A stretch of DNA of 24,037 nt, from positions 1-24,037 of the IMG/VR virus record IMGVR_UViG_3300033067_001674. One strand, 5' to 3'. This document shows positions 2,238-21,674 of this stretch, in pieces. The notes under the pieces are model-generated. The model was not told the origin of the DNA, searched no databases, and saw nothing but the letters and a program-made list of their open reading frames with translations. The stretch comes from a virus. Its lineage: Duplodnaviria > Caudoviricetes. Each line of letters begins with the position of its first letter. The stretch's first letter is position 1. The translations under genes and the position numbers were made by a program.

Positions 2238-3656
2238 ATGTCGAACGTCCGGACGATCAGCGCTGCTCGATCGCCCGAGGCGCTCCCTGCCCTCCCGCCA
2301 GGATCCGGCCCGTCCATGACGGTGCTTCGCGAGCCGTCGACCCGCTACTATTACACGTGGACGCCCGCGCTCATCCGCGCCGCCGAGGTTGCAGCGATGA
2401 GCGGCAACCTCCGTCTCGCCGCCGACTTGTGCGAGTGGATGATGGGCGACGATCGCGTCAAGGCGGTCCTTGACACCCGCACCGACGCGCTCCTCGGCCT
2501 GCCCTTCGAGGTGCTCCCCGCAGGCGACGGGCGAACCGGCCCGCGAGCCGCGCGCATCATCGGTGACGAGTGGGAGGAGTCGTTCCCCGAACCGGAGCTC
2601 AAGAAGTTGCTCGCGTGGGGCATCATGCTCGGCGTCGGGCTCGCGCAGATCATCTGGCACGAGGTCGCGGGGATGTGGATCCCCCGACTCGAGGTCTGGT
2701 CGCCGCGCTGGCTCTCCTACGACTACGAGCGCCGATCTTGGATGGTCGAGGCGGCCGGGCCCAGCGGGCTCTCGTCGTCCATGCCGTCGCAACGTGAGCC
2801 GATCTGCCCAGGCGATGGCCAGTGGATCGTCTACACCCCCGAAGGTCGTAGCCGCCCCTGGGTCCACGGCGCCTACCGCTCCCTCGCGCGCTGGACGCTA
2901 CTGAAACAGTACGCGCAGACCGACTGGGGGTTCTATTCCGAGCGGCTTGGCCAGGGCGTGTGGGTCGCCGAGACCGACCCCACGAAGGCGGGTGCGGCGA
3001 CCGGCACCGAGACCCAGCGGAAGCAGCTCGCCGCCGACCTGCAGACGCTCGGACGCAACAGCGCGATCGGGCTGCTCCCAGGGCAGACCCTCAAGCTCGT
3101 CGAGAGCGTGGCGCGCTCGCAGGAGAATTTCCGCGCGCAGATCGAACTCGCCGACAACGGGACCGCGGTCAGTATTCTCGGCCAGAACCTCTCGACGCAG
3201 GCGGGGTCCGGCGGGTCGATCGGGTCTGCCACGCTCCACGGCAAGGTCGCTCACGGTCGCACGCGCGTCGACGGCAAGACGCTTCCAAGCGCGCTCCGCG
3301 GCCAGTGCCTCGTTCGGTTCGGAGAGTGGAATTTCGCCGACGAGACCGTCGCTCCGCGCCCGTGGTGGGACACCAAGCCCGTCGACGACGAGAAACTCGA
3401 GGCCGACATCGACATGGAGCGCGCGCAGGCGGCCGCCACGCGCGTCAACGCGGGGATCACTACGCCGAACGAGGAGCGCGCGGCGCGCGGGCTCCCCCGT
3501 ATCGAGGGCGGCGATGTCTTGCGATCGGCAATCCCCGCGACCTCGAGCAACGAGACGCCCGCGACCACTTCCGTGAGTAGCCCCGACCTCGAGCACGCGG
3601 GCGACGACCCGTCCCCGGCGACCGACCCCAACGACGAGCAGGACCCAGACGAATGA
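2238..3656 (+). CDS. Portal protein, DUF935 / Mu gp29-like
   Basis: Start taken as ATG 2238, 5 nt after the terL stop; the upstream part of the 1602 ORF is a shadow over terL. Motifs DDRVKAVLDTRTDALL, GLAQIIW, WGFYSERLG, SILGQNLST and GSATLHGKV are typical of DUF935 portals. Position directly after terL. Confidence 0.88.
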   Translation: MSNVRTISAARSPEALPALPPGSGPSMTVLREPSTRYYYTWTPALIRAAEVAAMSGNLRLAADLCEWMMGDDRVKAVLDTRTDALLGLPFEVLPAGDGRTGPRAARIIGDEWEESFPEPELKKLLAWGIMLGVGLAQIIWHEVAGMWIPRLEVWSPRWLSYDYERRSWMVEAAGPSGLSSSMPSQREPICPGDGQWIVYTPEGRSRPWVHGAYRSLARWTLLKQYAQTDWGFYSERLGQGVWVAETDPTKAGAATGTETQRKQLAADLQTLGRNSAIGLLPGQTLKLVESVARSQENFRAQIELADNGTAVSILGQNLSTQAGSGGSIGSATLHGKVAHGRTRVDGKTLPSALRGQCLVRFGEWNFADETVAPRPWWDTKPVDDEKLEADIDMERAQAAATRVNAGITTPNEERAARGLPRIEGGDVLRSAIPATSSNETPATTSVSSPDLEHAGDDPSPATDPNDEQDPDE

Positions 3657-5236
3657 CTCGCGCGCTTCACCTCGCCGCTGCCATCGCGTGGGCCATCTCT
3701 CCGGAGTGGCTCGGGACGATCCTCACTATCGCCAACCGCGAAGGCGCCGGGCCCGAGGCGGTCTCCGCCGAGCTCGGCCGGCCGCTCGAGAACACCCACG
3801 CCGTCGAGCGCCGCGGAGACATCGCGGTCATCCCGGTACACGGACCGATATTCCGCCGCGCCAACCTGTTCTCGCAGGTGTCGGGCGCCACGAGCGTGCA
3901 GGTGCTCGCCACCGATCTGCACATGGCTCTCGATGCCGAGGAGATCAAGGCGGTCGTCCTTGACGTCGACTCCCCTGGCGGCGAGGCCAACGGCATCTCC
4001 GAGCTTGCCGCGATGATCTTCGCCGCGCGCGGACGGAAGCCGATCTACGCCTACGTCGGCGGCACCGGCGCCAGCGCCGCCTACTGGATCGCCGCCGCCT
4101 GCGACAAGATCCTCGTCAACGACACCGCGTGCGTCGGCTCGATCGGCGTCGTGCGAGCGATGCCCAACCCGGCCGCCTCGAGCGCGCGTGACATCGAGAT
4201 CGTGTCGTCGGTCAGCCCGAACAAGCGGCCCGACGTGACGACCAAAGACGGCCGCGCCGTCGTGCAGGCCGAGGTCGACGCGCTCGCCGATGTCTTCGTC
4301 GGCGCCGTCGCTCGATACCGAGGCGTGAGCCCCGAGACCGTCGTCGAGCGGTTCGGTCGCGGGGGATGCCTCATCGGCGCCGCCGCCGTCGATGCCGGCA
4401 TGGCCGACGGGCTCTCGTCCTTCGAAGCCGTGCTCGCGTCGCTCGCCGAGCCCACCACGTCCACCCCCGGCGGGATGACCGCCACCGCACCGGAGACCCG
4501 CCCCATGGCCAAGCCCGCCGCTTCTCTCCCCGCCCGCACCCTCGCCGCCGAGGACGACATGCCCCCCGCCAGCGAGCCCGCGGGCGAGCCCGACGGCGAC
4601 GAGCCGAAGGGACCGGCGTTCGCCGAGGGCGATGCCGTCATGGTCGGCGAGCGTCCGGCCGAGGTCACCGAAGTGCGCAACGGCCCCCACTACGCGGTGA
4701 CCTTCACCGACGAGCAGGGCGGCGCGTTCCAGTGGGCCAGCGAAGACGAGCTCGAGGCCGCGGGCTCGGAAGCGCAGGAAGATGGCGAGGAGCCGACCGC
4801 CGAAGACGATGAGGACGGCAAGGACAAGGCCCTGCGTTCCGCCCGCGCCGAGATCCGCGCCCTCAAGGCAAAGCTCGCCGGCAAGACGAGCGCCCAGCGG
4901 CGCGCAACGTCGACCGCCATCGCCGAACGCGCCCTCGCCGATCGCCGGGTGACCCCCGCCGCGCTTCCGCACCTCCGCGCCCTCGCGACCGCCATCGGCG
5001 CCAACCCCCGCGCCCACGTCGCGCTCGAGTCGTTCGTGTCCGCGCTGCCCCGCATCCCCGCAGCCACGAGCGTGCGCATGCCCCCGAAGCAGGACGCCAA
5101 CGACACCCCCGCGCACCTCAAGTGGGCGGGTCGCGACTTTTCGACGCTGACCATGGCCGAGAAGGAAAGCCTCTACGCCGAGGCCCCCGAGCTTTTCGCG
5201 CAGATGCGCTCCGCCTCGCGTCCGCCCGCCGCCTGA
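3653..5236 (+). CDS. S49 (SppA/ClpP-class) prohead maturation protease with C-terminal scaffold region
   Basis: Motifs IAVIPVHGPI, LDVDSPGGE, GASAAYWIAAACD, VGSIGV, PNKRPD and AVDAGMADG. C-terminal acidic linker and helical scaffold-like region ending TMAEKESLYAEAPELFAQMR. Confidence 0.92.
   Translation: MTRALHLAAAIAWAISPEWLGTILTIANREGAGPEAVSAELGRPLENTHAVERRGDIAVIPVHGPIFRRANLFSQVSGATSVQVLATDLHMALDAEEIKAVVLDVDSPGGEANGISELAAMIFAARGRKPIYAYVGGTGASAAYWIAAACDKILVNDTACVGSIGVVRAMPNPAASSARDIEIVSSVSPNKRPDVTTKDGRAVVQAEVDALADVFVGAVARYRGVSPETVVERFGRGGCLIGAAAVDAGMADGLSSFEAVLASLAEPTTSTPGGMTATAPETRPMAKPAASLPARTLAAEDDMPPASEPAGEPDGDEPKGPAFAEGDAVMVGERPAEVTEVRNGPHYAVTFTDEQGGAFQWASEDELEAAGSEAQEDGEEPTAEDDEDGKDKALRSARAEIRALKAKLAGKTSAQRRATSTAIAERALADRRVTPAALPHLRALATAIGANPRAHVALESFVSALPRIPAATSVRMPPKQDANDTPAHLKWAGRDFSTLTMAEKESLYAEAPELFAQMRSASRPPAA
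4491..4511 (+). promoter_or_regulatory. Shine-Dalgarno/start motif CGGAGAC-N4-CCCATGGCCA (internal, in protease gene)
   Basis: cggagac ccgc ccc atggcca; matches the motifs at 5333 and 9009. Confidence 0.6.
4505..5236 (+). CDS. Putative nested in-frame scaffolding protein (lambda C/Nu3-like arrangement), 243 aa
   Basis: In-frame ATG just after the protease domain, preceded by CGGAGAC at 4491-4497. This is the same start context as the capsid and sheath genes. Confidence 0.62.
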   Translation: MAKPAASLPARTLAAEDDMPPASEPAGEPDGDEPKGPAFAEGDAVMVGERPAEVTEVRNGPHYAVTFTDEQGGAFQWASEDELEAAGSEAQEDGEEPTAEDDEDGKDKALRSARAEIRALKAKLAGKTSAQRRATSTAIAERALADRRVTPAALPHLRALATAIGANPRAHVALESFVSALPRIPAATSVRMPPKQDANDTPAHLKWAGRDFSTLTMAEKESLYAEAPELFAQMRSASRPPAA

Positions 5237-5332: not shown

Positions 5333-5354
5333 CGGAGACAGCAGCCCATGGCCA
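5333..5354 (+). promoter_or_regulatory. Shine-Dalgarno/start motif CGGAGAC-N5-CCCATGGCCA of the major capsid gene
   Basis: cggagac agcag ccc atggcca; contains GGAG upstream of ATG 5348. Confidence 0.75.
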
Positions 5355-6580
5355 CCATCACCAAGTCGAACCAAATCATCCCGGAGCTCTTCGCCGAGGC
5401 CGTGGATGGTGCCTTCGCCTCCGCGTCCGCGTTCATGGGCGCCGAGGCCGTCAACCTCGGGATCGTGCAGGTCAACGGGAGCTTCCCGCAGGCCGGCCCG
5501 GACAAGATCGGCAGCACGGTCAGCGTCCCCTACTTCGGGAGTCTCGGCGAGTTCGTCTCGCGCACGGACGGCACCCCGGCGACCGCCACCGCGTCGTCGA
5601 TGTCGAAGGAGCAGGGCACGATCGACTGCGGCACCCTCGGGTTCGAGCTCACCACGTGGGCCGGTTCCGTGCCCGTGCCCGGCCGCTCCCCGTACGAGGT
5701 CTACGCGGGCCAGGTGCTGCAGGCGGCGGAACGCTGGTGCGACCGCAAGATCATCGACGCCGCGTGCGCGGGCAACAACCAGCTCGTGTACGACGTCTAC
5801 TCGTCGACCACGCCGAAGAACATGGACTACGACGTGCTCGTGTCCTCGCTCGGCCTCTGGCGCGACCGCGGACGTCTGAACGAGATCGCCGCCATCGCGG
5901 TCTCGTCGGCGACCATGATCGATCTGCTCAAGCTCAAGGACGCGGTGGGCCGCCCGCTGCTCGTCCTCCCCAACGAGCCCGGCATCCCGCCCGTCATCTT
6001 CGGCAAGCCGCTGATCGTGAGCGATCGCCTCCCGACCGACAACAGCTCGCTGACCGCGGTCACGTCGGCCGGCACCTCGCCGCCCACCATCACCGTGGCG
6101 ACCTCGGCCAACCGCGAAGGCATCACCGGCCCGGTGCGGCCGGCCGACATCAAGATCGCGTGCACCACCACCGGCGCGCTCGGCGCGTGGAAGTTCAAGC
6201 TTTCGATCGACGGCGGCGCGACCTTCACGGCCGACGACGCCTACACCTCGGGCGCGACCGTCGAGCTCCTCGACCCGCTCGACCCCGCCGGCGGAAAGCT
6301 CGGCATCACCCTCTCGATCGCGGCCGGTTCCGCCAGCGCGAACAACACGTGGGTGTTCAAGACCATCACCAAGCAGACGTCGCTGCTCCTCAAGAAGAAC
6401 AGCCTCGTCTTCTGGTACAACGCCCAGTACGCCGGCGTCCTGCAGTCGGTCCCCGTGCCGCTGAACGACAGCATGATCTATGCCTCGCACCTCTACAGTG
6501 TGGCGCACCGCTACATCCGGCTCCCCGGGCAGAACCTGCCGGGCGTCGTCAAGATCCGCCACAACGCCGGCGGTCTCTGA
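5348..6580 (+). CDS. Major capsid protein (HK97 fold, N4-gp56-like family) with an inserted beta-sandwich domain
   Basis: Follows the protease/scaffold gene and has a strong RBS. N-terminal TITKSNQIIPELFAEAV, GSTVSVPYFGSLG, LLKLKDAVGRPL and IFGKPLIVSDRLP motifs are typical of HK97-fold capsids. Insertion spans about 6041-6364. Confidence 0.88.
   Translation: MATITKSNQIIPELFAEAVDGAFASASAFMGAEAVNLGIVQVNGSFPQAGPDKIGSTVSVPYFGSLGEFVSRTDGTPATATASSMSKEQGTIDCGTLGFELTTWAGSVPVPGRSPYEVYAGQVLQAAERWCDRKIIDAACAGNNQLVYDVYSSTTPKNMDYDVLVSSLGLWRDRGRLNEIAAIAVSSATMIDLLKLKDAVGRPLLVLPNEPGIPPVIFGKPLIVSDRLPTDNSSLTAVTSAGTSPPTITVATSANREGITGPVRPADIKIACTTTGALGAWKFKLSIDGGATFTADDAYTSGATVELLDPLDPAGGKLGITLSIAAGSASANNTWVFKTITKQTSLLLKKNSLVFWYNAQYAGVLQSVPVPLNDSMIYASHLYSVAHRYIRLPGQNLPGVVKIRHNAGGL
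6068..6087 (+). repeat. 20-nt direct repeat copy 1 (GCCGGCACCTCGCCGCCCAC), in the capsid insertion domain
   Basis: Identical to 9302-9321; both encode AGTSPPT. Confidence 0.9.
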
Positions 6581-6605: not shown

Positions 6606-6869
6606 GTGCATCCACGCCGCTACTACCTGTTGCAAGCGCTCTTCGAGAAGAGCAAGGGCGCCGACGCCGCGTGGTTCACGCTGCGTGGGCAGCAGCAGGC
6701 GCTCGCAGGCACGGCCCTTCCGACGACGATCGTCCGATACGACCTCCTCATCGCCGCCGGGTACCTCACCTACGAGGACGTGCGCGGCGCCCGAGCTGAC
6801 GAGCTCATGAAAACCGCCGGGCTGAACCGGCGCGAGGCCGACGCGGTGATTGCCGCGGTCGGCGCCTGA
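6606..6869 (+). CDS. Small protein with a helix-hairpin-helix-like C-terminal domain
   Basis: LIAAGYLTYEDVRGARADELMKTAGLNRREADAVIAAV resembles HhH repeats of RadA N-terminus / NusA-AR type. RBS GGGAGAGG upstream of GTG. Confidence 0.65.
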   Translation: MHPRRYYLLQALFEKSKGADAAWFTLRGQQQALAGTALPTTIVRYDLLIAAGYLTYEDVRGARADELMKTAGLNRREADAVIAAVGA

Positions 6870-6893: not shown

Positions 6894-7286
6894 ATGGCCT
6901 CTCAAGTCCTCCTGCCGGTCTCCGGCTTCACCATGAGCAACGGGAAGTTCGCCAACGTCACCGGCGCGCCGATGTTCCCCCTGCAGACGCAGACGGCGAC
7001 GGCAACCGGCGACATCTTCGAGGTCGGCGACCGCCTCGGTCTCCGGCTCACGCTCAACGTGACCGCGGCGAGCGGGACCACCCCGACCCTCGACGTCATC
7101 GTCGAGACCTCGGACGATCCCACGTTCGCGACCAACGCCCGCACCCTCATGACCTTCACGCAGAAGACCACGACCGGCACGCAGCGCCTCAGCGCGGCCG
7201 GCATGGACCGCTACATCCGCCCGAAGGCGACGATCGGCGGGACCACCCCGTCGTTCACGTTCTCGCTCGACGGCGAGGCCGTCTGA
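6894..7286 (+). CDS. Putative head decoration/cement protein (Thr-rich beta-sandwich)
   Basis: 130 aa, alternating beta-strand pattern (LRLTLNVTAASGTTPTLDVIVETSDD...RYIRPKATIGG). GGGAG RBS; located near the capsid gene. Confidence 0.55.
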   Translation: MASQVLLPVSGFTMSNGKFANVTGAPMFPLQTQTATATGDIFEVGDRLGLRLTLNVTAASGTTPTLDVIVETSDDPTFATNARTLMTFTQKTTTGTQRLSAAGMDRYIRPKATIGGTTPSFTFSLDGEAV

Positions 7287-7290
7287 GTCG

Positions 7291-7725
7291 ATGTCCCTTA
7301 CGGACGTCACCGCCGGAGGCGTCCTGCTCGCCACCACGGCGGATCTTGCTGTACTGGGGATCTCGGAGGCGGTGACCGCGGACATCCCGGCGGCTACCCT
7401 CACCGCCATCCTCACGGCGGCGACCGAAACCGCAGGGTCGATCCTGCAGTCGAGCGGGCGCATTAAGTTGCCCCTCACCTCGTGGGGGGCCGACATCAAG
7501 TCCGCAGTCGCCAAGATGGCGGCATGGGACGTGATGTGCGTGCGCATCGGGCACAACCCCGAAGACCCCAACAACTTCGTGTGGCGAGACCGCGACACCG
7601 CAGCGCGGACCTACCTCGAGCAGGTGGCGCGCGGCTTCGTGGTGCCCGTGGGCCTCGTCGACGCCACTCCGACGGTCACGAAGACCGGCACCGAGATCTA
7701 CACCGAACCGCTACGAGGATGGTGA
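7291..7725 (+). CDS. Head-tail adaptor, Mu gp36 / DUF1320-like
   Basis: Pattern ATTADL...AATETAGSILQS..IKLPLTSW...VAKMAAWDVM...RDTAARTYLEQVARG matches the gp36/DUF1320 layout. Synteny. Confidence 0.75.
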   Translation: MSLTDVTAGGVLLATTADLAVLGISEAVTADIPAATLTAILTAATETAGSILQSSGRIKLPLTSWGADIKSAVAKMAAWDVMCVRIGHNPEDPNNFVWRDRDTAARTYLEQVARGFVVPVGLVDATPTVTKTGTEIYTEPLRGW

Positions 7726-9008: not shown

Positions 9009-9029
9009 CGGAGACTCATCCCATGGCCA
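9009..9029 (+). promoter_or_regulatory. Shine-Dalgarno/start motif CGGAGAC-N4-CCCATGGCCA of the sheath gene
   Basis: cggagac tcat ccc atggcca. Confidence 0.75.
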
Positions 9030-10528
9030 TCGGCAGCGCAAGCGTCGCGTTCCGCGAAGGACAACTCCCCGTCGCCGCGGAGAGCACCGACAACCTGATC
9101 GTCGTCTACGGCTACTGCACGCTCGGCACCACCGGGACGCTCTACTCGTTCCAGGGCGCAAGCCCGGCGGACGTGGTGACGCAGCTCGGCTACGGCCCGC
9201 TTGCGCAGCTCGTCGCCGAGCTCATGTCGACCCCCGGTCATGGTCCGGTCGTCGCCGTCCCGTGTGCGGCCACCGCCGGCGTCCTCTCGTCCGTCACCGC
9301 CGCCGGCACCTCGCCGCCCACGGTGACCCTGACGGGCAACTCGGTCGACGAGTTCCTCGGCCGCGTCGAGATCCGCTCTGCTGGCGCGCGCGGCACCGCG
9401 ACGTTCCGCTACTCGCTCGACTACGACTCGGCGAACCCCACAGCGGCGACGTGGAGCGGTGACATCGTCACCGCGGCCACCTACGTCATGGACAACAGCG
9501 GCGTCACGCTCAACTTCGCCGTCGGCTCGTACGCCACCGACAACGTCTACACCTTCACCGGCGCCCAGCCGACGCACTCCGACGCCCAGATCACCGCCGG
9601 GATGGACGCCGTCTTCGCTGCCGGCACCGACTTCGGGATCGGCTACGTGGTCCAGCGCCCGCGCGGCGTGGACGATGCCGCCGGCGTGACCGCCATGGCT
9701 ACGACCTTTGCCGCGGTCTCCGCGAAGGTCGATACGCTCGAGTCCACCGGCTACAAGTACACCCTGCACCTGATCGAGGCCCCACGCCCCCTCGCGGCCG
9801 ACTCCTCGGGTCTTGCCACGTGGCGCGGCGCCCTCACCGGCGCCACCGCGCAGGCACTCGCGCACAAGCGCATGGCCATCGTGGCCGGCTACGGGCGCAT
9901 CAAGAGCGTCGTGGACCAGCGCGTGACCCGACGCCCGGTCGGCTGGCGCATCCTGCAGCGACTCTCCGTCGCCGACATCTCCGAGAAGATTTCTCGCGTC
10001 GACTCCGGCCCGCTCCCGACGTTGCTCTCGATCGAGCACGACGAGGGTACGACCGGCGGACTCGGCAGCGGGTCCACCGGGCAGCGCTACCTGACGTGCC
10101 GAACGTGGGCTGGAAAAAACGGCTTCTACGCGGCGAGCGATCCGACGTTCGCGAGCGTGGGGTCGGACTACTCGATCATCGTGCGTCTGCGTGTCGTCAA
10201 CCGTGGCGCGAAGGTGCTCCGCAACGGACTCCTGCGCTACGTCGACGACACGATCCTTGCCGACTCCACCACCGGCAAGATTCTCGAGACCGAGGCGCAG
10301 CACATCGACGAGGACATCACGCAGCAGCTCGTCGACGCGCTGGTCAACAGCAAGAGTCGCTCGGGCAAGCCGCACGTCTCGAGCGTGGCGAGTCGCGTGA
10401 ATCGCACGGACGCCATCCTCACCACGAGCACGCTGACCGGCACCGCGGCGATCCAGCCTGCGGGCTACGCCACCGCCATCGCCTTCACCATCGGCTTCAC
10501 CGGGGCGACCGTCTCGGCGGCTGCCTGA
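9023..10528 (+). CDS. Contractile tail sheath protein (DUF2586-like)
   Basis: 501 aa. LGYGPLAQ, ISRVDSGPL, RYLTCRTWAGKNGFY, GSDYSIIVRLRVVNR and C-terminal IQPAGYATAIAFTIGF are typical sheath motifs. Precedes the tube gene. Confidence 0.9.
   Translation: MAIGSASVAFREGQLPVAAESTDNLIVVYGYCTLGTTGTLYSFQGASPADVVTQLGYGPLAQLVAELMSTPGHGPVVAVPCAATAGVLSSVTAAGTSPPTVTLTGNSVDEFLGRVEIRSAGARGTATFRYSLDYDSANPTAATWSGDIVTAATYVMDNSGVTLNFAVGSYATDNVYTFTGAQPTHSDAQITAGMDAVFAAGTDFGIGYVVQRPRGVDDAAGVTAMATTFAAVSAKVDTLESTGYKYTLHLIEAPRPLAADSSGLATWRGALTGATAQALAHKRMAIVAGYGRIKSVVDQRVTRRPVGWRILQRLSVADISEKISRVDSGPLPTLLSIEHDEGTTGGLGSGSTGQRYLTCRTWAGKNGFYAASDPTFASVGSDYSIIVRLRVVNRGAKVLRNGLLRYVDDTILADSTTGKILETEAQHIDEDITQQLVDALVNSKSRSGKPHVSSVASRVNRTDAILTTSTLTGTAAIQPAGYATAIAFTIGFTGATVSAAA
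9302..9321 (+). repeat. 20-nt direct repeat copy 2 (GCCGGCACCTCGCCGCCCAC), in the sheath gene
   Basis: Identical to 6068-6087. Confidence 0.9.
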
Positions 10529-16400: not shown

Positions 16401-16550
16401 GTGTACGCCTGCGCCACGTGCAAGCTCGCCGTCATCGTCCTGCGGGACGGCGCCGTCGTGCGCGTCGTGCGCGCATGCTCGTGCAGCGGGCCCATCGTCG
16501 CCGAGATGCGCGTCGCCATGAAGGGCCAGGGCGGTGGCGGGGTTCGCTAG
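16401..16550 (+). CDS. Small Cys-rich protein (49 aa; CxxC...CxC)
   Basis: GTG 2 nt after the previous stop; MYACATCKLAVIV...RACSCSGPIVAEM; fills the gap before 16534. Confidence 0.6.
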   Translation: MYACATCKLAVIVLRDGAVVRVVRACSCSGPIVAEMRVAMKGQGGGGVR

Positions 16551-17409
16551 CCTCAAGCAGATCGTCGAGCGCGACGTCGTTGACGGGGCTGTGCTCTATA
16601 CCACGTGGCGCAAGGCCCCCGTGGTGACGACGGGGCAGGGCTTCTGGCTCGACCTGTCGATGTCGCCGGGCAACCCTAAGCCAAACTACTATGCCGCCAC
16701 GCCACTGCAGTCGACCGCGCTAGCACAGTCGAGTGACGGCGGCCTGTTCCACGGCGGCGCGGTCTCCCCCGCGACGATGCACCTCCGCCGCATCACGGCA
16801 ATGACGCAGACGGCGGGAGCCGTGCCGCTGCCGATGATCCTCTGCGACTACCTACTCTACTACCCGGTACTCGACGAGGGCGTGGTTGACGAAGCACAGA
16901 CCCTAGCCAACTTTGTCACGCTCCCCCGCTACACCGACGGCGACAACGTGCAGATCATGGCGGTCGTCACCGCGCCGCACGTCACCGGCACCGGGACGAA
17001 GTTCGCGGTGAGCTACACGAACAGCCGAGGGGTTTCCGGGCGGACGTCGAAGACCGTGCAACTCGGGACGCAGACGGTCAACGGAACGATCGCGACGTCG
17101 GGGCAGGCCACCGCACAGTGCTTCGGACCGTTCGTGCCGTTGCAGGACGGCGACAGCGGCGTCCGCTCGATCGAGTCCGTCACCTTCACTGGGGTTCCGG
17201 ACGTCGGCCTGCTCACGCTCGTCCTTGTGCGCCCCCTTGCCGATGTGTCCTTGCGCGGCGTCGATGCGGCGGTCGAGGTGGACTTCCTGACCGACAAGCC
17301 GTCCCTGCCTCGCATCTACGACGACGCCTACCTCAATTGGCTCGTGCTCGCCGCGGGCAACGTCACGGGCGCGCAGATCAACGGGGAAGCCTGGTTCTCC
17401 TGGAGTTGA
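16534..17409 (+). CDS. Hypothetical beta-rich putative virion protein, paralogue A
   Basis: 291 aa; shares LPRYTDG, YTNSxGxxxRT, GDxGVxS and PSLPRxYDxAxLxWL with the next gene. Confidence 0.8.
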   Translation: MAGFASLKQIVERDVVDGAVLYTTWRKAPVVTTGQGFWLDLSMSPGNPKPNYYAATPLQSTALAQSSDGGLFHGGAVSPATMHLRRITAMTQTAGAVPLPMILCDYLLYYPVLDEGVVDEAQTLANFVTLPRYTDGDNVQIMAVVTAPHVTGTGTKFAVSYTNSRGVSGRTSKTVQLGTQTVNGTIATSGQATAQCFGPFVPLQDGDSGVRSIESVTFTGVPDVGLLTLVLVRPLADVSLRGVDAAVEVDFLTDKPSLPRIYDDAYLNWLVLAAGNVTGAQINGEAWFSWS

Positions 17410-17412
17410 CCT

Positions 17413-18543
17413 ATGGGCTACACCTCGATCGACGACTTCGTGCAACAGGTCACCGTCAACGGCAAGTTCCGCCGCGTTGACTGGAACAAGCTCACGCACT
17501 CGGTCGGCGTTCACGTCGCCGGCGAGTGGCACTGCCTGTTCCATAGCACCGGCAACCCGACCACCGGCATCCTGAACGGCGGCACGAACCTCTCGTTTCA
17601 GTCGCTCGACGAACTCTCGACCGGCGCCATCTACCACGGTGGCGAGGTCTCGACGGCGACGAAGCACATCCTGAACGCCTCGGCGTTCAGCGCGGCGGCG
17701 ACGACCATGCCGGCTATCGCGATGCTGGTCGACCTGCTCGGCTACTATCCGATGTCGACGACGACCGTCACCGGCAACCAGGCGACGTTCCACGCGGTCA
17801 CGTTCACGGCTGACAGCACGACGGAGATCATCACGCACACCGGGTACGACATCGCGGACCGGACCCGCGTGCGTGTGACCAACTCGGGCGGCGCGCTCCC
17901 CGGCGGCCTCTCGGCGGGTACCGACTACTGGACGATCCGACAGAGCGCCACCACAAGCAAGCTCGCCTCGAGCCGCGCCAACGCCATCGCCGGAACCGCC
18001 ATCGACCTCACAACCAACGGCACCGGCACGCAGACGATCACGACGTACCTGCCGCGCTACACGGACGGGGCTGGTGTCGGAGCCATCGTCACCTGCAACA
18101 CGGCGTGCGGCGCGGCGACCCCGAACCTCTCAATCACCTACACCAACAGCGCGGGTACTGGGTCCAGGACGACGCCCGCGACGCTGCCCGCCGGCAAGAC
18201 CTCGCCGATCATCGGGCACATCCCATACAGCGGCACCGGCGCGGGCAAGTACGGCCCGGCGATGCCTCTGGCCGGAGGCGACGCCGGTGTGCAGTCGGTG
18301 CAGCAGCTCAACCTCTCGGCGTCCTACGTCTCGGGAACGCTCGCGTGGATGCTGGCGCGCCCGCTGCTCACCCTCCCGATGACCACGGTTGGTGTGGCCG
18401 CCGAGCGCGACCTTCTGAACCAACTCCCGTCGCTCCCTCGCGTCTACGACGGTGCGTGCCTCGCGTGGCTGCTCTACGCGGGCGCCGCGACGCCGGTCTC
18501 GAGCGCGTTCTACGGACACCTCGACTTCGGGTGGGGCGGGTGA
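17413..18543 (+). CDS. Hypothetical beta-rich putative virion protein, paralogue B with ~85-aa insertion
   Basis: 376 aa; same motifs as 16534-17409 plus an inserted domain (FTADSTTEIITHTG...GGALPGGLSAGTDYW...IDLTTNGTGTQT). Confidence 0.8.
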   Translation: MGYTSIDDFVQQVTVNGKFRRVDWNKLTHSVGVHVAGEWHCLFHSTGNPTTGILNGGTNLSFQSLDELSTGAIYHGGEVSTATKHILNASAFSAAATTMPAIAMLVDLLGYYPMSTTTVTGNQATFHAVTFTADSTTEIITHTGYDIADRTRVRVTNSGGALPGGLSAGTDYWTIRQSATTSKLASSRANAIAGTAIDLTTNGTGTQTITTYLPRYTDGAGVGAIVTCNTACGAATPNLSITYTNSAGTGSRTTPATLPAGKTSPIIGHIPYSGTGAGKYGPAMPLAGGDAGVQSVQQLNLSASYVSGTLAWMLARPLLTLPMTTVGVAAERDLLNQLPSLPRVYDGACLAWLLYAGAATPVSSAFYGHLDFGWGG

Positions 18544-20483: not shown

Positions 20484-21674
20484 ATGGCGGATCCGACGTA
20501 CGCCGAGCTCACCACCCCGATGACGCGCGAGGAGGTCCTCGCGCAGCAATTGGCGGTGCTCTCCGGGCCGGACTTCAGTCTTCCGACGTCCTCGTGGGGA
20601 CCGACCGACGAGCCAATGGCGACGCTCGCCGCGGACGCCGACGTGCTCGCCGACCTCTCCGCGAAGAACGCGGGCGTGGCCAAGGCTGGCGTCACCGACG
20701 ACGCGGCGAGCGACGTCTTGACCGTTCATGCGGCGGACGTCTTCGACGAGCACCGCCTCACAGGTGTCCCCACCATCGGCACCGTCACCCTCACGGAGTC
20801 CGCCGGCTCTCCGCAGTCGTGGCTTGCGGGAGCGCTGCTCTTCTCGAGCGCGGTCGCGCCCGACGTGATCTTGGTGAACGTGGGCGCCGTGTCGCTCTCG
20901 GCGCTCGGCACAGCATCGTTCTCCATCCAGGCAGCGGCCCCGGGCGTTTCCGGCAACGTCCAGGCGGCCGACCTCGTGATGGTGTCCCCCGTCCCCGGTG
21001 TCTCGCTCTCGGCGAGCTCGGGGACGTCGTGGATCACGCAGGCTGGCACGGACGACGAGTCGGACGAGAAGCTGCGCCTTCGGTGTAAGACCAAGTGGGC
21101 CACGCTCACGACCACGGGCCCTGACGATGCCTACATCAAGTGGGCGCTCGACGCAGACGCGACGATCAACCGAGCGAGCGTCTTCGAAGACGCGACGGCC
21201 GACGCGACGGCGGGCGACCCCGCGGTCACCGTGTACTGCGCTACGTCGACCGGCGCTCCGTCGGTGGCGACGCTGGCGGTGGTTGACGCGTACATTCAAG
21301 CCCGGCGCCCGATCGGCATCCTGGTCCGTACGAGCGTGGTCAGCACCTCGACGGCCTACGTCAAGGGAACGGTCACCGTGCGCGCGGCGTCCCGCGTGGC
21401 CGCAGAGGCCTACATCAACGCGCAGCTCGACGCGTGGTTCCGCGGCGAGGCGATCAAGGTGAACGGGGAGACCGTCGACGGGCTCGGCATCGGGGCGCGC
21501 ATGCGTGTCGTGCAACTCGTCGAGATCGTCATGTCCGCGCCTGGCGTCGTCTCGTTCACGCCAAAGAAGGTCGATGGCACCACCACCTACGCGATCGACA
21601 CCGACGACCTGATTGCAGGGGCCAACGAGGTCCTCGTGCTGTCGCGGTCGCTCACCTACGCCGAGGTCACGTGA
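20484..21674 (+). CDS. Baseplate J-like protein (P2 gpJ / Mu gp47)
   Basis: IQAAAPGVSGNV, GTDDESDEKLRLR, GPDDAYIKWAL, RRPIG and SAPGVVS motifs; 396 aa. Confidence 0.92.
   Translation: MADPTYAELTTPMTREEVLAQQLAVLSGPDFSLPTSSWGPTDEPMATLAADADVLADLSAKNAGVAKAGVTDDAASDVLTVHAADVFDEHRLTGVPTIGTVTLTESAGSPQSWLAGALLFSSAVAPDVILVNVGAVSLSALGTASFSIQAAAPGVSGNVQAADLVMVSPVPGVSLSASSGTSWITQAGTDDESDEKLRLRCKTKWATLTTTGPDDAYIKWALDADATINRASVFEDATADATAGDPAVTVYCATSTGAPSVATLAVVDAYIQARRPIGILVRTSVVSTSTAYVKGTVTVRAASRVAAEAYINAQLDAWFRGEAIKVNGETVDGLGIGARMRVVQLVEIVMSAPGVVSFTPKKVDGTTTYAIDTDDLIAGANEVLVLSRSLTYAEVT

Follow-up and report, generated by a model that had tools for sequence, protein, structure and literature searches.

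The major capsid protein of this phage carries, in a loop of its HK97 A-domain, an inserted module that is homologous to a module in the tail sheath of the same phage. As judged from sequence comparison, both belong to a portable, unnamed family of all-beta domains of ~90-105 residues, given that relatives carry the module in seven or more families of virion proteins. The window (the whole stretch of DNA analysed) is a 24-kb viral record of ~69% G+C, and profile searches and gene order indicate that it contains the morphogenesis genes of a Mu-like phage with a contractile tail, namely those for terminase, Mu-type portal, S49 protease, capsid, gp36 adaptor, DUF2586 sheath, tube, tape measure, and baseplate J. 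Related loci were found in Polyangiales, Myxococcales, Deinococcota, Proteobacteria, and Tessaracoccus MAG contigs, and the nearest cultured relatives of the sheath are those of Myxococcus phage Mx4, Meiothermus phages MMP7 and MMP17, and Thermus phage Riverbug. We infer a myxobacterial host for the window phage.

Homology of the capsid and sheath copies

The capsid gene (5348..6580, + strand) encodes a 410-aa protein matched by phrog_247, major head protein (E 2.6e-7). Its model superposes on the LME-1 capsid 9eg4 (Z 16.8, rmsd 3.9, 247 aligned) and on HK97 1ohg (Z 13.5), and the similarity of its core to HK97-fold capsids extends over about 225-275 residues; this fold match, taken with the position of the gene after those for the portal and the S49 protease, places the protein in the HK97 fold. 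The 501-aa contractile tail sheath (9023..10528, + strand) is a member of the DUF2586 family (Pfam E 4e-26; 92.4 bits vs a cut-off of 26.4) and of the phrog_907 tail sheath family, and its model matches solved sheaths with Z up to 27.6. In the capsid the module spans aa 234-339 (6047..6364, + strand), where it follows the strand GKPLIVSDRLP and is flanked by two predicted A-domain strands, 220-224 and 342-349. Its homologue in the sheath spans aa 87-180 (9281..9562, + strand).

The original prediction held that the two segments are homologous beyond the short motif AGTSPPT and share a fold, and our comparisons bear this out. BLASTP aligns them with 31 of 109 positions identical (28%, E 4e-6). 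Their Smith-Waterman score of 97 was reached in none of 5000 shuffles (shuffle maximum 74), the part that follows the motif still scored 55 by itself, a value matched by 2 of the 5000, and the score of the whole capsid against the whole sheath protein was reached in 0/1000. When a profile of 44 capsids (of 45 hits, with one fragment left out) was compared by HHalign with a profile of 33 sheaths (of 46 hits), the two families aligned over 110 columns at 99.5% and E 7.2e-23. The composition-preserving shuffles and the profile comparison rule out chance or low-complexity similarity.

In AlphaFold models of the full-length proteins, both modules are predicted to be all-beta, with seven strands of at least three residues at matching positions. 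The capsid strands are 239-241, 248-252, 267-274, 282-286, 304-308, 317-324, and 334-340 (pLDDT 86-94 in 10-residue blocks), and those of the sheath are 92-94, 101-105, 111-119, 127-131, 153-155, 161-165, and 175-181 (88-96). The common fold is judged here from strand positions in two separate models, together with the profile homology.

Two features of the capsid module stand out in the alignment of 44 capsids. An Asp-box-like hairpin motif, SIDGGATF (aa 286-293; 6203..6226, + strand), has invariant S286 and G290, and an extra loop at aa 307-319 (6266..6304, + strand), whose columns are gaps in the sheath copies, has invariant D309 and G319. The module is conserved to the same degree as the capsid core, with mean identity of 51% vs 51% and entropy of 1.46 vs 1.60 bits (p = 0.09).

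A six-frame profile search of the 24-kb record found no further module copy, the proteins encoded at 6894, 15994, and 23537 included. The genes for the small beta protein encoded downstream of the capsid (6894..7286, + strand), the Mu gp36-like head-tail adaptor (7291..7725, + strand; Pfam Phage_Mu_Gp36), and the baseplate J-like wedge protein (20484..21674, + strand) are therefore module-free in the window.

Several other observations on the window were made along the way. The gene preceding that of the capsid (3653-5236) encodes an S49-family protease/scaffold; at the same place, the related locus L001 encodes a different protein (3482-4840) that resembles another prohead protease type, although the L001 capsid is 84% identical to that of the window, and this looks like replacement of a protease gene beside a conserved capsid. 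An 87-aa gene lies directly after the capsid gene (6606-6869), with a weak helix-hairpin-helix (HHH_5) match at E 0.008, below cut-off. Farther downstream, the neighboring genes at 16534-17409 and 17413-18543 are paralogous (33-38% identity in two blocks), and the product of the second contains a ~90-aa insertion (aa ~115-206) with a weak phrog_30390 match, a second and different plug-in segment.

Insertion into the capsid and spread over virion proteins

Scans of three collections gave 132 loci with 115 complete capsid ORFs, 92 of them distinct. The module is present in 54 of these 92 capsids and absent from 38, which confirms that the segment is a true insertion domain and rules out that it is part of the HK97 core. 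The insert-free capsids are about 280-305 aa long and have a short loop following the SDR(L/V)P strand at the module site, and all 54 bearers have the module in the same A-domain loop, as seen from the upstream context of all 54 and the junctions of 13. Mapped on a tree of the capsid cores, presence of the insert requires 3 changes, vs a mean of 29.7 in shuffled data (0/500 shuffles). In an enlarged core tree of 78 rows, to which three capsids were added and from which near-copies were removed (the window row being merged into L001), a 99% branch sets 43 insert-bearing capsids apart, and five capsids with a shorter module are placed among insert-free capsids. The tree tests neither establish nor reject a single origin of the capsid copies (p-AU 0.43 and 0.42). 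The capsids of L141, L142, L146, L147, L019, L042, and L078 have a shorter, sheath-like module in that loop and cores that branch among insert-free ones; they are candidates for independent gains.

The module is more widespread in the sheath. It occurs in 60 of 62 sheath ORF pieces of at least 200 aa, in one to three copies per sheath, and the two module-free pieces correspond to the N-terminal part of a single split gene, the module being encoded in its next frame. The split gene (L017:8411-9485, on a contig shared with L091) lies over two reading frames, through either an assembly error or a frameshift. All 39 dereplicated phages with a detected sheath have the module there (23/23 with a capsid insert and 16/16 without); these sheaths were detected using a profile built from module-bearing sheaths, and no sheath was detected in 39 of 78 loci, of which 12 have at least 6 kb of downstream DNA. 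The DUF2586 and phrog_907 profiles, of 386 and 376 positions, match almost all of the 501-aa sheath, and these lengths suggest that typical sheaths of the family may lack the module. Cultured Mx4 and MMP17 share the sheath family and the sheath module with the window phage but have no capsid copy: in MMP17 the module is present in the sheath only and the related capsid is insert-free, and in Mx4 it is present in sheath p55 and baseplate J p64. The latter protein (L133:24610-26073), annotated as hypothetical, is baseplate J-like (E 6.5e-28) with an N-terminal module. A tblastn search of 50,697 phage records gave no match to the capsid module in cultured phages, and none was found in plasmid records.

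A profile of 78 module copies, searched against 1.84 billion representatives, gave 3,618 matches at E<=0.001 and 1,549 at E<=1e-10, the latter count being inflated by Asp-box-only hits. The best 150 matches comprise 80 sheaths, three capsids, nine post-capsid beta proteins, 34 others, and 24 partial hits to the Asp-box alone. Among 35 carriers that we scanned further were three baseplate J proteins, two gp36 adaptors (P0233 and P0256), five pectate-lyase/tailspike-like proteins, and one sheath, and none was flagellar. The carriers overall are the sheath, capsid, post-capsid beta protein, baseplate J, gp36 adaptor, pectate-lyase/tailspike-like, and LamG-like proteins, with one to four full copies. 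Two baseplate J proteins have two copies each; four proteins with a LamG-like body (P0088-P0091, one with a sub-threshold Laminin_G_3 hit) have the module near the N-terminus; L136, L137, L139, L140, and L145 have it in proteins that are adaptor-like (gp36) by sequence likeness; and L005-L007 have it also in a protein just upstream of the sheath.

The family of the small beta protein encoded at 6894 (phrog_9522/5707/427; window 6894-7286, L001:7150-7869, L004:11260-13304) is found close to the capsid gene, often twice; of the 90 loci with sufficient downstream DNA, 63 have it, with zero to three inserted modules. In L001, L002, L004, L076, L085, L087, and L097, homologues have the module inserted near residue 92, and in L001 it splits two halves that match the window protein. 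Perhaps this is a decoration protein.

Predicted fold and possible roles

The module family has no name in Pfam, PHROGs, or NCBIfam. Sequence searches of the PDB found no match for the capsid or the sheath, and for the module only Asp-box motifs; fold searches with the whole capsid returned HK97-fold hits, which bear on the core of the protein, and an Atlas feature search with the capsid copy returned only unnamed viral clusters, below 0.9. When the sheath model was compared with 48,161 solved chains, FlgL 5ziz (Z 8.6, rmsd 2.2) and FlgK 4ut1 (Z 8.2, rmsd 2.4) were, among the matches listed, the only ones confined to the module, over 79 residues each. These Z values, obtained with the sheath model only, lie just above the range that the search tool calls common. 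An independent Atlas structure search gave FlgK-family models with TM of 0.70, 0.60, and 0.59. The module is thus predicted from the sheath model to have the fold of the outer (D2) domain of FlgK/FlgL, a prediction that extends to the capsid copy via its homology to the sheath copy.

The D2 domains and the module superpose over 79 of about 95 residues, and both are exposed beta domains on helical polymers, those of flagella facing the outside (PMC12221982); they differ in having 13% identity and no profile match. PF21158 (FlgK/FlgL D2-like) was absent among the best 25 of 28 Pfam families at E<=0.1 for the 78 module copies, and no flagellar chain was among 59 PDB sequence hits to the module at E<=10. 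A related case is the Vibrio phage XM1 sheath gp6 (7kh1), which has an insertion domain resembling flagellar FliD D3 and so, like the module-bearing sheaths, a likeness to an outer flagellar domain; unlike in the window phage, no capsid copy is described in the accessible part of that account (PMC10457771), and gp6 gave no match to the module in a single-sequence comparison (probability 0.9%). An Asp-box-like pattern is present in 51 of the 78 copies, with weak Pfam BNR hits in 18. A sialidase-like BNR/Asp-box propeller was rejected: there is one hairpin per module, and the sialidase hits cover the motif only.

The capsid insertion site has a well-known precedent. The I-domain of P22 gp5 occupies residues 222-345 within the A-domain (PMC9965877), a recurring insertion point, and its D-loops link subunits (PMC5701804). 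The capsid module (234-339 of 410) is all-beta like the I-domains of P22, Sf6, and CUS-3 and lies at the corresponding place in the HK97 A-domain, strand-level equivalence being inferred from order along the chain. The P22 I-domain differs from the seven-stranded module as a six-stranded Greek-key barrel, with no tail-protein counterpart described in the available portions of those two sources (PMC9965877, PMC5701804). The P22 chains align with the capsid model over 252-255 residues, no more than insert-free capsids do, so the inserts are not superposed in place, and no P22 entry was among the listed matches to the sheath copy in the search with the full-length sheath model.

In its distribution, the module behaves much like the Ig-like domains of phages (Big_2, FN3, and I-set, with examples in phi29 gp8, lambda gpV, T5 pb6, and SPP1 gp17.1*), which are mobile among virion proteins, optional, and outward-facing, and for which weak binding to cell-surface carbohydrate has been proposed (Fraser et al. 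2006, cited in PMC9230969 and PMC8718954). The phi29 capsid Ig domain is stated to resemble that of the T5 tail tube (PMC11476376). The module is likewise a small beta domain spread over several unrelated virion proteins, optional, present in tandem copies, and predicted to face outward. It differs in lying inside loops rather than at the C-terminus and in having capsid and sheath copies in one genome. Searches with the 78 copies gave only single weak Pfam hits to Ig families (Big_12 E 0.023, TIG E 0.054) and only singletons in NCBIfam.

Display of the module on the outside of both head and tail, which the original prediction had proposed, is supported at the level of prediction by the A-domain insertion in the capsid and the position of accessory domains in the sheath. 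We envisage that the two segments are old members of one FlgK/FlgL-like family, inserted in loops of the virion proteins of Mu-like myophages. A compact domain with adjacent ends would fit a surface loop, and one module per subunit would be displayed on the capsid, at the site of the P22 I-domain, and on the sheath, where accessory domains lie away from the tube. By analogy with the Ig-like domains, these modules may form a low-affinity, many-copy adhesion coat that binds cell-surface or matrix polysaccharide, and such a coat on the virion surface is the option that we favor, by a modest degree of confidence. For a function that would have to hold in neck, wedge, spike, and decoration positions, often in tandem, external binding is a simpler explanation than a role tied to one geometry. 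Carbohydrate-binding modules have been shown on neck and tail proteins of lactococcal phages (PMC6669499).

A possible, though less probable, role is reinforcement of the lattices, in which the module would make neighbor contacts through its extra loop, as does the P22 I-domain, and would cement the sheath rings; this could coexist with adhesion. The module shares its site with a domain whose D-loops link subunits (PMC5701804), it is kept in 43/43 members of the main insert clade, and sheath accessory domains have been suggested to act in stabilization, among other roles (PMC9230969). Its core-like conservation and the invariant capsid-only loop with D309 and G319 are at least as compatible with a structural role as with host binding. 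However, 38 of the 92 related capsids do without the module, and lattice contacts cannot be common to the low-copy, geometrically unrelated adaptor, wedge, and tailspike-like proteins and the tandem arrays in which it also occurs.

More speculative, and in our estimate unlikely, is that a clade of myxobacteria-associated phages took a flagellar-junction domain and made of it a universal virion coat, over capsid, sheath, neck, baseplate, and spikes, that mimics the flagellar surface for binding of the host matrix or associates with itself as a docking system to which accessory proteins could be attached.

Two further explanations concern partners within the virion, and we consider both very unlikely. 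The first, also raised in the original prediction, is that the module is a common docking site on head and tail for one decoration or fiber protein, for example the 6894 protein. That family adjoins the capsid gene and is more frequent where the capsid has the insert (41 of 46 loci, vs 22 of 44 insert-free loci, each with at least 2 kb downstream, and uncorrected for kinship and duplicates), yet half of the insert-free loci also have it, and searches of MMP17 and of 36 kb of Mx4, both with module-bearing sheaths, did not detect it. The module is itself inserted in 6894-family, tailspike-like, LamG-like, and wedge proteins of relatives, which speaks against a single shared partner. The second is that the module binds itself, so that module-carrying fibers, spikes, and decoration proteins attach to a coated head or sheath, or virions cluster. 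Such pairing would fit the occurrence of the module in high-copy lattices as well as close to the N-terminus of the separate LamG-like proteins P0088-P0091, and would also fit the tandem copies. Tandem arrays and spread over many proteins are, however, also seen for Ig-like spacer and adhesion domains, and no fiber-type gene of the window has the module, which was found there in two copies in total.

Origin of the capsid copy and its meaning

The original prediction also ascribed the capsid insert to transfer of the phage's own sheath domain between the two genes, and here our data point elsewhere. In 20 dereplicated phages, the normalized similarity of the capsid copy to the phage's own sheath (0.191) is no higher than that to sheaths of other phages (0.193; permutation p = 0.56), whereas capsid copies of different phages have a mean similarity of 0.38 to one another. 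The window's own sheath ranks 11/37 in similarity to its capsid copy.

The part of the claim that concerns nucleotides was reproduced: the 20-nt stretch coding AGTSPP(T) in the capsid copy (6068..6087, + strand) is identical to that in the sheath copy (9302..9321, + strand), and it is the window's only exact direct repeat of 20 nt. It is also the longest match in the 20 within-phage comparisons, and six identical codons in the motif have a probability of about 0.005-0.01 from codon usage alone. As evidence for recent copying it is nevertheless weak. Third-position G+C is 96% in both window copies, and 14 of 24 codons for identical residues outside the motif are identical too, so high codon identity is the background. 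A longer exact match of 24 nt joins the window's capsid copy to the sheath of L002 (1/380 between-phage pairs exceeds 20 nt), which cuts both ways because L002 is a close relative of the window, and in L001, the closest capsid relative, the longest within-phage match is 9 nt.

A GTxPP-type N-terminal motif is present in 63 of 70 capsid copies vs 11 of 60 sheath copies, six of these 11 being the window and its close relatives. Since the motif is typical of capsids and rare in sheaths, the sheath copy of the window may itself have acquired sequence from the capsid side. In L146, the best match of the capsid copy is the phage's own second sheath copy (0.63). This match and the GTxPP distribution suggest that head and tail genes probably exchanged sequence in places during the history of the family, through old or local events, and a short, old conversion tract may lie at the N-terminal motif. 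The post-capsid beta-protein copies group with capsid copies in trees; in L001, L002, and L076 their pairwise scores are equally high to the phage's own sheath.

A recent duplicate of the own sheath domain, with gene conversion keeping the copies alike and little function, could draw on the 20-nt identity, on the enrichment of GTxPP in sheaths of the window's clade, and on L146, but the within-phage, nucleotide-match, and codon comparisons largely refute a recent copy of the whole domain, the window copies are only 28% identical in protein, and capsid copies extend across hosts down to 33% identity, making this account highly improbable. The wider spread of the module in sheaths, in unrooted data, suggests instead that it was present in the sheath lineage before the capsid gained it. 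Recombination between structural genes would then have brought it into the capsid on one or a few occasions, and the capsid would have kept it and acquired the capsid-specific loop.

Domains inserted into capsids, accessory domains on sheaths, and promiscuous surface domains have all been described before, and the module system is not a new kind. Capsid and tail proteins of Listeria phage PSA and Lactobacillus phage A2 are both reportedly extended by frameshifting. Our literature search, which reached few subscription papers and covered main texts rather than supplements, returned no description of the module family, of DUF2586 sheaths, or of a domain common to the capsid and sheath of one phage.

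These findings define a large, uncurated domain family that behaves as Ig-like domains do and has a different predicted fold, and they provide a case in which one virion has the same domain in the A-domain loop of its HK97-fold capsid and in its sheath. They bear on whether accessory domains of capsids and sheaths serve adhesion or stability, and the natural pairs with and without the module, together with the sheath copies in cultured Mx4 and MMP17, make the role open to testing. The A-domain loop of the capsid emerges as a naturally proven display site in the HK97 shell.
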